A stretch of 51,498 nt of DNA from Chlamydiota bacterium (GTDB lineage Bacteria; Chlamydiota; Chlamydiia; Chlamydiales; RGXB01): assembly GCA_947494155.1 (NCBI GenBank), contig CANLTW010000010.1, positions 1 through 51,498 of the forward strand, written 5' to 3'. A program made the position numbers. Positions 15,001 to 18,000 of this stretch are shown here, in pieces. Position 1 is the stretch's first letter, and each line of letters starts with the position of its first letter.

Positions 15001-18000
15001 GTTTATGCCGTTGATTCAAGTAGCGTACAACATCCTCGATTATCACGATAAAAATTTTAAATCGGCGGTTGCCTCGCTCAACGCAGTCAACATCTCCGAG
15101 GAGGCAAAAGGGGCCATTGACCTCATCATCAACGCAAGGGAAAAAGACATCCAGATATTCTCTATGGCTCTCGACATTATTCGTAACCATGAAGTGCAAC
15201 ACTTTCAAATGGAGATCCAAGCTTACGAAGTTAAGATGAGAGAACAGGAGAGCTTATTTGCACGTTATTTGAAATGCCGAGAGGTTCAACAAGAGGAGGT
15301 CAGATTCGCTAGGGAATGTGCCTTTAAAGACCGGGTGCAAGACCATCAAGAGAGTGTCGACAAGCGAAAATTAGAGATTGAACAGCAGATTGTTGTTTTT
15401 GCGCATGAGGCCAACAAGCAAAGAGAGAAAAATCAGCTAGCTATAGAATCTTTACGGATCCAAACCGAAGGGTCTATCCAACAAAAGGGGATGGAGATCC
15501 AAAAAGGTCTGCAAATGAAAGCTCTTGACGTAGAAGAAAGACTAGGTAAGCAGCAGATCAGAGCCCAGATGGCAATGGCTAGCCAAGCGATCCAAGCTGA
15601 AGAGAGAAATCGCCAAGCTCAAATCGAAGCCCAAATGGCTGAGTTGCATGTTCACGGGCAAATTGAACACCGCAGGATTAGCGTGGATGGTCACGTAAAA
15701 ACTATCCAAGCTAAAGCACAGGCAGAAGTGGGTGTGGCTCAAGCAATCGCCTCTGCTTCCCCTTGCTCAATTATGTGAAATGCTTTAGCGACGCCCCCTC
15801 TAATCAAGGCGTTACGCCTCGTTCTTGGGCGAGGAAAGAAAAAATGGTCTTCACACGAAACAATCATTAAAATGTGTGGGTCAGTTTTAGGGGGGGGTGA
15901 ATTTTTGAACAATGCTTTTAGAAACTTTGAGTAAAATATGGCAATTCCACAGATAGGTCCGAGCGCATTCCTCCTAATGGAGCAAACAGTTGGAGGACTC
16001 TTGCTTACCCCCTTAGAGAGGATGTCTACCCCTTTTGCAAGTGTTTGCAAAACAACAGCGCTTGTCCCCAAAAATGCGCTCCCCATTTCGCAGCAAACAC
16101 AGACAATAAGTAAGATTGCTCTAGATCGGTTACATGCTTTAAAAGAGACAATGCTGAGCCATTTCCGTGAGGGGGAGGATCAAAGGGCGTTGGAATGGAT
16201 CCGGCTCTATCAAAAGCAGATCGAAAAAATGCTCCATACGGCGATGACAAGCCTTGGAAACCGCCCCTTTTTTACCGATTTTAAAAATACCCTTTTTGCC
16301 AATGCGTTTGAGCTTGAGAACATCAAAAAAATTTGTGAGAAAAAGGGGGCTCAAAAAGAGGAGATCGAAAGAGAGTTCTTAAACCAAATAACTCAATTAG
16401 ATCAGGGTGTGCCCCGCGAGACACAAAGCTACCTAGAAGCGGTGGAACAAGAGCTTCTTGAAGCGTTTCAGACTAAAGATCTCGCTTTTAATGCCATAGC
16501 GGATTACTACCTGCACCAAGTGGGTGTTTTACAAAACTTTTTGAGTGGATCGACAGGGATTATCCCCAGTTTTTCCCTCTACGGTGAAATAGAAAAGCAG
16601 ATGCAGAGCTACAAAAAAAGTCTTAAAGCTTTGCAAGGTGATGTTATCCAGACGATGCGTCATCTAGCCGATCCGACGAATATCCTGAGTGAAGTTCGGG
16701 ATAAAATTCGTAGTACACTTCAAAAATTGGAAAAAAACAAAAAGCGCGCTGTAGAAAATTTACGCAAAGCTCTGACAGAGTCTTCCCTAGAGGATTCTAA
16801 AGATTTGAGTGATCAGCTGCAGCAGGTAAATGAGATTTATCTACTGGGGTTAGAAGATTATATCAAACTGACCAAACAGAGTCTCAATACGCTGGTTCAA
16901 GAGATCACAGAGTGTCTCTCCCTATCTTTAGATTCTCAAGATCACCAGATGCAAATTCTTTCGACCAAGTCTAAAAGGGTGATCGAGTATTTAGAGTACG
17001 AATCGACTAAGATTCTTGAGATGGCTCAAATTTTTCAAAGGCCGGTCGTCTCTAAAGAATATGGGGAAAAAAAAGGGTTTTTTTTCCATACCTCTGACTC
17101 ATTGGTGGATGGGAGGATTTCGAAAATATCGATAGGGGCGAAGGATACCATAGAGAGTTTGCAAGTAGTCTATACGGATGCTGAAGGAAAGGAAAAAGTT
17201 GGCCCTGTTTTTGGAAAAGCGATACCGCACAACAAAACAATTCATCTCAGTAGCCAGGAGAAAGTCCATCGGGTGGTCGTCAGCGCCCTCCCCTTAAATA
17301 GGTCACAGCAGAGCTCGAGGATTAAGGATATCGCTTTACATGTGCACAATCATGAGGGTCGTGGGGTCCATGTGTATGAGCTCACCGCCAAAAAAAGTTC
17401 CAAACAAGAGGTGGAAGAGATCTCGTTTGAGGATTCTTACTATCTTTCGGGGATTCGTGGGTACGCGAGTTCTCAAGGGATTCACTCACTATCATTTATC
17501 TTCTCCAAAGATTTTTCCAGTCACCTAAAAAAAGATCTCTCCTCAAAGATTGAGGCTGCACTTCAAGCTCTTCGCCAAGAGCCCTCTTGTCAATTAACCG
17601 CTGCTGAGAAAGAGAAGATTCAGCAGATGTTTGTTGGGCAGGTGTTTGTAGAATTAGACAAAGCTACACTCGATCCGTATGCAGTTTTGGGCTTAGGGCA
17701 AAATGCCTCCTTTGAAGAGGTCAAAAAGGCCTATCATAAACTTGCCAGGATCTACCATCCGGACAAAGCTGAGAGCTATAAAGTGGGGCTTTATAGACGT
17801 AAGTTTGCAGAGATCGCTACCGCTTACCATGCTTTAGAGGAGAGATTTGGGGCGATTGGCGCCTTACCCAATAAAAATGTTTGTCTCCCCTCTTTGTTGT
17901 GATGAAAAATAAAAAGGAAAGAACCGGTGTCTTCAAAAATCCCCTCTCCCCTGCCCCACGTAGATGCGCATGCTGGGCAAGAGCCTATCCTTTTCAATCC

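Follow-up and report, generated by a model that had tools for sequence, protein, structure and literature searches.

The sites and substrates of Hsp70 action are set by J-domain proteins, and the locus described here, from an uncultured lake-water chlamydia, raises the question of which Hsp70 and which target are served by a bacterial J-domain that is joined to a lectin-type fold. A pathogen that supplies a J-domain of its own can divert the main chaperone of its host, and not many bacterial examples are on record. The window analyzed is a stretch of 51,498 nucleotides that covers one contig (C10), and all features given below lie on its forward (+) strand. The survey's finding was a 654-amino-acid (aa) protein with a helical region, a lectin-type domain, and a C-terminal J-domain with a His-Pro-Asp (HPD) motif, which was read as a sugar-guided co-chaperone directed at the host. 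This three-part architecture was borne out and is better supported than before. The family to which the protein belongs couples the J-domain to a lectin-fold recognition module and offers defined proteins on which the idea can be tested, with natural variants among them: motif-intact and degenerate prisms, MORN repeats instead of a J-domain, a change of HPD to HTD, and a fused partner.

The gene and its base composition

Reading of the open reading frame (ORF) gave the same limits that had been reported, positions 15938..17902 with the stop codon included, and the same product of 654 aa. The N-terminal Met-Ala is common to the full-length homologs P0002 to P0005, and P0002 and P0003 also match in the next residues. 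The combination of domains had been thought absent from the rest of the genus; this is incorrect, since genome G001 of the same genus encodes a 655-aa ortholog with 69% identity that matches Pfam DnaJ with 55.7 bits and Pfam Jacalin with 26.2 bits. In comparison with this ortholog, the dN/dS of the whole protein is 0.172, and the ORF is real, with all of its domains under purifying selection.

As described by the survey, C10 has the lowest G+C content of the 24 contigs (39.26%, versus 42.14% for the genome). The description of the locus as a low-GC island fails at the gene level: the gene has 43.7% G+C and the four-gene cluster to which it belongs 45.3%, both above the genome mean, so that the gene belongs to a part of this low-G+C contig that is locally rich in G+C. 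A plasmid or foreign island was rejected as the origin of the gene on account of this G+C content and of the housekeeping genes on the contig. Four lake-water RNA libraries yielded short contigs at least 99% identical to the gene, at positions 15929-16300 in three runs and at 17372-17525 in the other, for which DNA carry-over is possible; no contig in the four runs fell on the downstream 301-aa gene or on positions 16344-17263, and this absence of cover is not informative. Between positions 12800 and 19400, a promoter scan gave 4 promoter-like sites, fewer than in shuffled sequences (mean, 11.1), and terminator-like sites were at chance level (10, versus 7.7 in shuffles), so no operon limits were derived.

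A disordered N terminus and a helical region

Residues 1 to 45 (15938..16072) are disordered in the model (pLDDT 25-41) and, with 48% identity and a dN/dS of 0.33 relative to the G001 ortholog, are the least constrained long segment of the protein. The maximal Kyte-Doolittle mean over 19 residues is 1.17 for the whole protein, below transmembrane grade, which agrees with the survey's report of no hydrophobic window and indicates that the protein has no signal-peptide-like or membrane segment. Inc proteins are characterized by a bilobed hydrophobic domain of about 40 to 60 residues; since no hydrophobic lobe is present here, an Inc protein was rejected. The variable N terminus, disordered as modeled, is compatible with a type III secretion signal and does not in itself show one.

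The following domain, residues 46 to 366 (16073..17035; about 320 residues), is predicted by the full-length model to consist of about seven long helices. DSSP helices span residues 50 to 366, in agreement with the earlier description of a helical region, in a model of low confidence (pLDDT mostly 50-73). This region is conserved across the family; for residues 46 to 366 there was no Pfam family above its cut-off, no PDB sequence match, and no usable structural look-alike in the Atlas. The full-length model, which was built from a 5-row alignment, has a pLDDT of 49.9 and leaves the beta domain unfolded, and it was left out of the fold search.

The middle domain is a predicted beta-prism I

Residues 367 to 527 (17036..17518) form a jacalin-type beta-prism I with degenerate sugar-binding motifs, as judged from Pfam, a structural model, and a family profile. 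The Pfam Jacalin match at residues 374 to 463 was reproduced (E value of 6.2e-7; 30.4 bits, cut-off of 22; profile positions 3-87 of 136), and sequence homology to jacalin lectins can be detected with profiles across the first and second Greek keys. A model of residues 365 to 654 (pLDDT 77.5) contains a complete prism of twelve strands (residues 365-527), and the predicted arrangement of three Greek-key four-stranded sheets is that of a beta-prism I. This part of the model aligned with ZG16 (7o3i_A) over 141 of 143 residues (Z 20.5; rmsd, 2.0; target-normalized TM-score, 0.85) and with Heltuba at Z 18.6, and Foldseek returned 149 matches at an E value of ≤0.001 (best, 1.2e-9) with jacalin-type lectins on top. 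A 7-row family profile searched against the PDB found Heltuba at an E value of 1.7e-8 and 44 PDB sequences in all, nearly all of them named jacalin-type lectins; hhalign put the probability of a match to P0022, a canonical jacalin protein with four repeats, at 97.3%; and relatives scored 59.8 to 64.4 bits on Pfam Jacalin, the 59.8-bit case covering positions 2-133 of 136. The weak Jacalin match on which the survey had relied thus holds up, on the complete prism in the predicted model and the PDB matches of the family profile. The third-key register cannot be fixed by sequence, because hmmalign to the four P0022 repeats extends no further than the first Greek key or the second. A single-sequence PDB search with the domain gave no match at an E value of ≤10, and a Pfam Jacalin search of the organism's own genome was uninformative, being silent even for the 654-aa gene and finding 0 of 14 controls. 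With a dN/dS of 0.093 relative to the G001 ortholog, the prism is the most constrained domain of the protein.

A C-terminal J-domain of class C

The prism is followed by a linker of two helices in the model (residues 528-577; 17519..17668) that opens with a family-wide D-F-S motif; the helices lie at model residues 163-183 and 191-202, and F526 is invariant in the 18 rows of the family alignment. The J-domain itself occupies residues 578 to 640 (17669..17857), as delimited by Pfam DnaJ, PDB matches, and the model. Pfam DnaJ was confirmed at residues 579 to 634 (E value of 4.8e-14; 52.6 bits, cut-off of 27.8), with a score of 56.7 bits for the gene in the genome search, and the HPD tripeptide was read directly at residues 607 to 609 (nucleotides 17756-17764), as reported earlier. 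In the model, the helices on either side of the HPD loop span residues 228-241 and 249-277 (model numbering), and the tripeptide is kept in 14 of the 18 family rows. PDB sequence searches again matched J-domain chains only (best, 6iws_A at 7.2e-8), and the modeled domain (pLDDT 80-94) aligned with xRbj (6jmg_B) at Z 9.3 over 66 residues (rmsd, 2.3) and with many J-domains at Z 7 to 9. Its dN/dS relative to the G001 ortholog is 0.120.

No Gly/Phe-rich region, CXXCXGXG zinc finger, or DnaJ C-terminal domain was found, there being no such Pfam family at an E value of ≤1, and the NCBIfam DnaJ models match residues 576 to 637 only. By its domain content the protein is thus a class-C (type III) J-domain protein. 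A housekeeping DnaJ was rejected, since DnaJ_C and the zinc finger are lacking and a canonical DnaJ (108 bits) is encoded on contig C3. Against the DnaJ of the organism itself the J-domain scores 34.4 bits, and against human DNAJA3 it scores 35.0 bits, which is a tie. Because these scores place it no nearer to J-domains of eukaryotes than to those of bacteria, the Hsp70 partner could be the single DnaK encoded in the genome.

A rare family with rearranged members

The family is rare, with 18 matches at an E value of ≤1e-3 among 1.84 billion representatives, and a repeat of the homolog search with the 18-row alignment returned the same 6 proteins and none that was new. Of the 400 genomes of the order that were scored, 4 have full-length copies, and these 4 represent 3 families; within the genus, such copies were seen in 2 of 7 genomes. 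Several members are rearranged: genome G352 has two tandem paralogs of the J-protein, P0015 carries MORN repeats where the J-domain would be, and in G339 (P0012) the J-protein is fused at its C terminus to a homolog of the 301-aa neighbor. In addition, the family includes a change of HPD to HTD. Judged by these sequences and their distribution, this is an accessory family of patchy occurrence that changes fast, in the way effector families do.

Neighboring genes and genome context

The gene downstream, 24 nucleotides (nt) after the stop codon of the J-protein gene, encodes a helical protein of 301 aa (17927..18832) that is a genetically linked partner. An ortholog with 59% identity lies at the same place in G001, a homolog adjoins the J-protein gene in G352 (E value of 7e-12), and the homolog in the P0012 fusion matches in BLASTP with 26% identity over 191 columns (E value of 2e-13). 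A predicted complex of the J-protein (18-row alignment) with this neighbor (4-row alignment) scored 0.00, which is no evidence either way. The gene upstream (14399..15778) encodes a helical protein of 459 aa that is more loosely linked; its ortholog in G001, also upstream, has 81% identity, and weak homologs lie a few kilobases from the J-protein genes in G339, G352, and G252 (20-27% identity; E values of 5e-15 to 5e-5), with scores that may be inflated by helical, low-complexity similarity. The first gene of the four-gene cluster (13446..14390), whose stop codon lies 8 nt before the 459-aa gene, encodes a 314-aa protein with a deaminase-like motif, and among the five genomes searched only G001 has an ortholog. 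For these three neighbors the maximal Kyte-Doolittle 19-residue mean is ≤1.26, and by this measure none of the four cluster proteins has a membrane or Sec-like segment. The eukaryote-like neighbors that had been pointed out, an F-box protein and two Pkinase proteins, are present in the window, as is a gene for a DSP phosphatase. The genome also encodes parts of a type III secretion system (T3SS), namely, an SctV-type export gate (726 bits) and three secretins.

A candidate translocated effector or an internal co-chaperone

The account that we favor, and to which we give about half of our confidence, is that the protein is an accessory J-protein of class C and probably an effector that is translocated and recruits host Hsp70 to a target, the choice of which would lie with the beta-prism and the helical part. 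The protein would enter the eukaryotic host, probably through the type III system; its helical and beta-prism region, perhaps together with the 301-aa partner, would bind a specific host structure or client; and the J-domain would there trigger ATP hydrolysis by host Hsp70/Hsc70, locking the chaperone onto the target. An effector of this kind is plausible because the family is accessory and patchy, with tandem duplication, fusion, and domain swap, and because a disordered, variable N terminus without a Sec-like or membrane segment coincides with eukaryote-like neighbors and T3SS parts. Against it we count that no secretion signal is recognizable, that the G+C content of the gene is not foreign-looking, that the J-domain bit scores are tied between the organism's own DnaJ and human DNAJA3, and that bacteria use specialized J-proteins internally.

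The last point leads to the alternative of an internal, specialized co-chaperone, which would stay in the cytoplasm and recruit the bacterium's own DnaK to a client or structure seen by the helical and beta-prism part. It would fit the missing export signal, the presence of one DnaK, the equal J-domain scores, the native-looking codon and G+C make-up, and the occurrence of TopJ, DjlA, and CbpA among the weak NCBIfam matches of the J-domain. A full-length distribution as sparse as that in the order and the genus would be odd for a housekeeping function in reduced genomes, and the tandem duplication, the swap of J-domain for MORN repeats, the fusion, and a neighborhood rich in eukaryote-like domains are all more in keeping with effector-type evolution, so that we consider an internal role possible but doubtful. 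If it were correct, the protein would be a new specialized DnaK co-chaperone in a reduced genome.

Degenerate sugar-binding motifs

The survey's proposal that the effector is guided by sugar, with an active lectin on a glycan-marked host structure at which the J-domain loads host Hsp70, stands as far as the lectin-type fold is concerned and is weakened by the state of the sugar-binding residues. The GXXXD register was taken from the strands of the model and from the alignment of the family. In this register, residues 512 to 516 of the beta11-beta12 hairpin are S-Q-G-I-H, and there is no acidic residue in 504-524. A G-x-x-x-D motif at this hairpin was found in none of the 17 family rows that could be delimited there, and the column of residue 516 holds Asp in 0 of 18 rows. 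At the first Greek-key hairpin, 10 of the 18 rows, P0010 and a G352 paralog among them, keep G-x-x-x-D together with the adjacent Gly-rich loop, whereas the 654-aa protein (K-D-T-I-E at 402-406) and its four closest homologs (5/5 rows) have a motif of the form K/x-x-x-x-E and a Gly-Gly loop of G-K or G-S; in the 654-aa protein this second Gly-Gly loop reads G-K. In functional lectins a glycine of the GG loop contacts the sugar by its main chain; in the first loop here, all rows have Gly376 and 16 of 18 have Gly380, and the canonical G-G pair reads G-E. According to the report on ZG16p (PMC4059138), mannose binding depends on the Asp of the GXXXD loop, and its change to Asn in D151N abolishes or diminishes this binding.

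Sugar guidance draws on the fold, which is that of mannose-binding jacalin-related lectins, on the strong constraint of the prism, on the invariant Gly376, and on the 10 rows with an intact first hairpin, because of which a lectin may have been the ancestor of the family. Since neither GXXXD position is intact, the mechanism is doubtful for the 654-aa protein, and together with the abolished or diminished binding of ZG16p D151N this makes a sugar-guided J-protein distinctly improbable in our estimation. Beta-prisms are also protein-binding modules, and Cry toxin domain II, which has a role in protein binding, matches the model at Z 12 to 14.6. With both GXXXD positions degenerate, the ligand of the prism is, on this reading of the sequence, more likely a protein or a non-canonical ligand than a mannose-type sugar. 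We suggest, tentatively, that the helical region and the beta-prism together form a targeting chassis of chlamydiae with which exchangeable payloads are carried into the host cell (in most members a J-domain that captures host Hsp70, in one MORN repeats, and in one the neighboring helical protein, added by fusion), in which the 10 members that keep GXXXD would be the first sugar-guided J-proteins and the clade of the 654-aa protein would have been retargeted to a non-sugar ligand. If true, this would be a new effector family with which an intracellular bacterium directs a chaperone of the host to a structure of its choice. The reading as an ordinary DnaJ-like protein or a chance Jacalin match, which could be argued from a weak match over 85 of 136 profile positions and the empty single-sequence PDB search, has next to no chance of being correct and is refuted by the ZG16 and Foldseek matches of the model, the profile, hhalign, and relatives' Pfam matches, and the true DnaJ encoded elsewhere in the genome.

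Comparison with known systems

A close parallel to the proposed effector is HopI1, in which a Pro/Gln-rich repeat region takes the place of the helical domain and beta-prism; its secretion has been shown, whereas that of the 654-aa protein is proposed, and its host is a plant rather than a freshwater eukaryote. Two reports describe HopI1 as a T3SS effector with a C-terminal J-domain behind a non-chaperone N-terminal targeting part, as in the 654-aa protein, that binds host Hsp70, stimulates its ATPase, and relocalizes it (PMC8150971, PMC6802931). The survey had seen here a new way to redirect host chaperones; by the same account of HopI1 of Pseudomonas syringae, the principle of a J-domain effector is already known (PMC8150971). 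HopI1 was the one bacterial J-domain effector found in the literature searched, and the search found no literature linking jacalin with Chlamydiae.

TopJ of Mycoplasma, DjlA, and CbpA likewise join a bacterial J-domain to non-DnaJ domains; they have no similarity to the 654-aa protein outside the J-domain, and their NCBIfam scores are far under the cut-offs (28 versus 300, 23.9 versus 162, and 24 versus 403 bits, respectively). On the side of the prism, ZG16p, Heltuba, artocarpin, and banana lectin share the beta-prism I (Z 17-20.5; rmsd, 2.0-3.5; 141-147 residues). They are secreted, stand-alone lectins, whereas the prism here lies within a 654-aa protein of cytoplasmic type, has a third Greek key that is unalignable by sequence, and is without the Gly and Asp of GXXXD at both hairpins. 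In Vibrio cholerae cytolysin, RbmC, Bap1, PirB, and Cry toxin domain II (Z 12-15), a beta-prism recognizes the target on behalf of a larger bacterial protein, as it would here; these are exported pore-formers or matrix proteins, and none has a J-domain.

Among class-C J-proteins, auxilin and GAK have targeting modules unrelated to those of the 654-aa protein, and the auxilin J-domain matches weakly (E values of 0.12-0.42). HopI1 locks Hsp70 onto its target at chloroplasts and auxilin does so at clathrin. Like the 654-aa protein, auxilin and GAK do without a Gly/Phe region, zinc finger, and DnaJ C-terminal domain and carry their J-domain at the C terminus, after the modules by which the client or site is selected.

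Domain architecture of the J-protein

The J-protein is encoded by a 654-amino-acid open reading frame (15938..17902, plus strand), in which Pfam recognizes a DnaJ domain at residues 579-634 (52.6 bits against a cut-off of 27.8, E 4.8e-14) and a Jacalin domain at residues 374-463 (30.4 bits against a cut-off of 22, E 6.2e-7). The Jacalin match spans positions 3-87 of the 136 in the profile, and no other Pfam family listed for the protein reaches its cut-off. The His-Pro-Asp motif (residues 607-609, nt 17756-17764, plus strand) is intact. A PDB sequence search at E<=1 returned 60 distinct chains, every one matched to residues of about 572-637, with the J-domain of DNAJA3 as the top match (7.2e-8). 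A membrane segment was not found in the protein, since the highest 19-residue Kyte-Doolittle mean is just 1.17 (residues 6-24). The survey's finding had listed both Pfam matches, the intact motif, PDB matches to J-domain chains only and the lack of a hydrophobic window, and each was reproduced on re-search. With an intact J-domain, none of the client-binding domains of DnaJ and a recognition part of its own, it is a class-C J-domain protein.

The jacalin match had been described as weak, and the fold that it pointed to is borne out by modelling. A whole-protein model built on 5 sequences (pLDDT 49.9) had helices at residues 50-366 (pLDDT about 50-73) and an unfolded beta region. A search with residues 1-570, which excludes the J-domain, against 1.84 billion representative proteins found 18 proteins at E<=1e-3, mostly of 626-684 amino acids, and a model of residues 365-654 from a 19-row alignment reached a pLDDT of 77.5 and a pTM of 0.59. 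This model has twelve strands in its residues 1-163, followed by two linker helices and the J-domain. Structural comparison with 48,161 chains by VIA-align gave ZG16 as the top match (7o3i_A; Z 20.5, rmsd 2.0, 141 of 143 residues aligned), followed by Heltuba (Z 18.6) and then pineapple, rice, champedak and other jacalin-related lectins; J-domains aligned with model residues 204-279 at Z 7-9.3. ZG16 also led the 149 Foldseek matches at E<=0.001 (E 1.2e-9, target TM 0.85). At E<=10, a 7-row beta-prism profile matched 44 PDB sequences, almost all of which carry the name of a jacalin-type lectin, with Heltuba as the best match (1.7e-8), and hhalign paired the beta-prism at 97.3% probability with P0022, a canonical four-repeat jacalin protein that scores 365 bits on Pfam Jacalin. 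A single-sequence PDB search with the beta-prism domain alone gave no match. Because the fold and profile matches are strong and the single-sequence search is empty, we regard the modelled beta-prism as real but divergent.

Distribution and constraint of the family

The first homologue search found five full-length homologues, for each of which DnaJ and Jacalin matches had been precomputed (99, 83, 69, 58, and 47% identity), and one 380-amino-acid partial form. Among 41 relatives' genomes, full-length matches were present in G000 and G001. The statement that the genus held none was wrong, because G001, of the same genus, encodes a full-length ortholog (E 2.9e-286, 69% identity, residues 1-650) with DnaJ (55.7 bits) and Jacalin (26.2 bits) domains. 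The remaining matches were to the J-domain of housekeeping DnaJ only, except for a 39-residue N-terminal fragment in a 55-amino-acid frame of G006, which was probably cut by a contig end. When an 18-row family profile was searched against the order's 400 scored genomes (E<=1e-15), 12 matched: four with full-length members (G000, G001, G352, and G339), two with partial forms (a prism-only 174-amino-acid frame in G215 and, in G252, a 608-amino-acid frame that retains the helical part and a weak prism and matches no Pfam family) and six with a J-domain match only. Judged by these matches, the family is rare and patchy, with members in three or four of the order's families.

His-Pro-Asp is intact in 14 of the 18 aligned rows; the other four are P0009 (HTD), P0018 (HSE), P0016 (a fragment) and P0015, which lacks a J-domain. 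In P0015 (675 amino acids), MORN repeats (72.8 bits) occupy the usual place of the J-domain, and the helical part and the Jacalin match (39.8 bits) are retained, which reads as a natural payload swap of MORN for J-domain. Family-invariant residues lie mostly in the prism or just past it (G376, F383, G392, E441, Y501, G508, F522, and F526). In pairwise comparison with the G001 ortholog, dN/dS was 0.172 for the whole gene, 0.093 for the beta-prism, 0.120 for the J-domain, 0.186 for the helical domain, 0.292 for the linker and 0.334 for the first 45 residues. These ratios indicate a functional gene with the prism as its most constrained part.

Gene cluster and genomic context

Four genes on one strand form a cluster in which the J-protein gene comes third; they encode, in order, proteins of 314 and 459 amino acids, the J-protein and a 301-amino-acid protein. 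The 314-aa gene (13446-14390, plus strand) is followed after 8 nt by the 459-aa gene (start at 14399, plus strand), which is separated by 159 nt from the J-protein gene; the 301-aa gene starts at 17927 (plus strand) after a gap of 24 nt. The gene order in G001 is the same, plus an additional 184-aa gene ahead of the J-protein gene. That gene (L009 4135-4689, plus strand) sits between a 482-aa gene and the J-protein gene and is absent from the matching 159-nt gap in the window; a 30%-identical homologue is found further on, at 30706-31263 of the window (plus strand; tblastn E 1.8e-14).

In G339, the homologues of the 301-aa protein and the J-protein occupy one 914-amino-acid frame (P0012; contig G339:C88, L013 787-3522, minus strand), a J-protein lengthened by about 240 residues homologous to the 301-aa protein (26% identity to P0012 residues 675-858, E 2e-13, BLASTP with composition adjustment). 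This fusion argues that the two proteins would act together. A homologue of the 301-aa protein also lies immediately upstream of the G352 paralog pair (E 7e-12), and weak matches adjoin the G252 gene. The 459-aa protein has weak homologues (20-27% identity) within a few kilobases in G339, G352, and G252; an ortholog of the 314-aa protein was found in G001 only, among five genomes searched. Hydrophobic segments are absent from all four cluster proteins, and their only NCBIfam matches are those to J-domains; for the 314-aa protein, neither Pfam nor NCBIfam gave a match. It carries a motif pair, C-A-E and P-A-C-G-S-C, about 40 residues apart, which we take to resemble the zinc site of cytidine-deaminase-fold enzymes, and the first three Atlas look-alikes of its residues 150-290 are YwqJ-deaminase-type clusters (score 0.89, 165-172 shared features). 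It is a candidate deaminase-like effector or toxin, encoded at the head of the gene cluster.

The low-GC setting described in the survey stands for contig C10, which at 39.26% G+C is below every other contig and below the genome as a whole (42.14%), but not for the J-protein gene (43.7%) or the cluster (45.3%), whose G+C tops 73% of the genome's 2-kb windows. The F-box protein and eukaryote-like kinases were confirmed by domain content: the window encodes, as eukaryote-like proteins, an F-box protein (10344-11429), two Pkinase proteins (5013-6191 and 39284-40231) and a dual-specificity phosphatase (40307-41278), all on the minus strand, several GNATs, and housekeeping proteins (adenylate kinase, ribonucleotide reductase, and Trp/Tyr permease). 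The phosphatase gene adjoins the second kinase gene. A 910-amino-acid protein (2202-4934, minus strand) joins a ribonucleotide reductase barrel (250 bits) to an HD domain (23.4 bits). A minus-strand run of genes for 297-366 amino acids (31644-39191), mostly without a Pfam family, lies where the window's G+C is lowest (33-37%); two of them match glycosyltransferase-like or DUF6492 families.

Of the cluster's sampled words, 77-93% are present in 13 DNA runs with a lake-water label, in addition to one possible source run. Contigs from four RNA libraries match the cluster (16 of 20 pieces at least 99% identical), covering parts of the 314-aa and 459-aa genes and, on the J-protein gene, positions 15929-16129 (X15), 15940-16232 (X16), and 16095-16300 and 17372-17525 (X18). 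As RNA libraries can contain DNA, this is a weak hint of expression. At 14526, three of four RNA-library runs have T, against A in the window, probably reflecting strain variation in lake populations.

Possible functions and comparison with known J-domain proteins

The J-protein might be translocated from the intracellular bacterium as an effector, a reading that we hold at about an even chance. It would fit because of the family's rarity, duplication, domain swap and fusion, the disordered variable N-terminus, the lack of a Sec signal and the neighbourhood. The genome encodes one FHIPEP/SctV gate and three secretins. It also encodes one DnaK and two J-domains, the second in a canonical DnaJ on contig C3. 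An internal co-chaperone of DnaK is a less likely role. By bit score, the J-domain is as close to the bacterium's own DnaJ (34.4 bits) as to human DNAJA3 (35.0 bits).

The beta-prism also raises the question of sugar binding. The site of mannose-binding jacalin-related lectins is described as a GG loop plus a GXXXD binding loop with the Asp on the next strand, and D151N in ZG16p as abolishing or diminishing mannose binding (PMC4059138); two GXXXD loops are described in banana lectins (PMC7804308). With the registers of both hairpins described here set by the family alignment and model strands, the hairpin between beta11 (residues 501-511) and beta12 (514-524) reads S-Q-G-I-H at 512-516, with no acidic residue. 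G-x-x-x-D occurs there in none of the 17 rows with a delimitable hairpin (P0013 was left out), and the residue-516 column holds H, T, N, S, R or G in the 18 rows, never D. The first Greek-key hairpin, formed by strands 393-401 and 405-413, carries G-x-x-x-D in 10 of 18 rows, in the form S-G-W-x-I/L-D and beside an H-G-G-x-G-G loop; the J-protein and its four closest homologues have K-x-x-x-E there, with G-K or G-S. Two tandem paralogs in G352 (G352:C1:97186-100977; L012 and L022; 644- and 657-amino-acid frames) both retain G-W-I-x-D there. We read these motifs as loss of the canonical mannose-type site in the J-protein's clade, with possible survival in more distant family members; that the J-protein itself is an active lectin is improbable.

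For an effector role, the nearest comparison is with J-domain effectors, which are already known. In the literature searched, which did not extend to subscription journals, we found no paper linking jacalin with Chlamydiae, no such protein in searches on J-domains and effectors with Chlamydia or Legionella, and neither the family nor its combination of beta-prism, helical domain and J-domain, which are what would be new here. HopI1 is described as an injected protein able, through its C-terminal J-domain, to relocalise host Hsp70 (PMC8150971, PMC6802931). The J-protein resembles HopI1 in its C-terminal J-domain and may likewise be injected.
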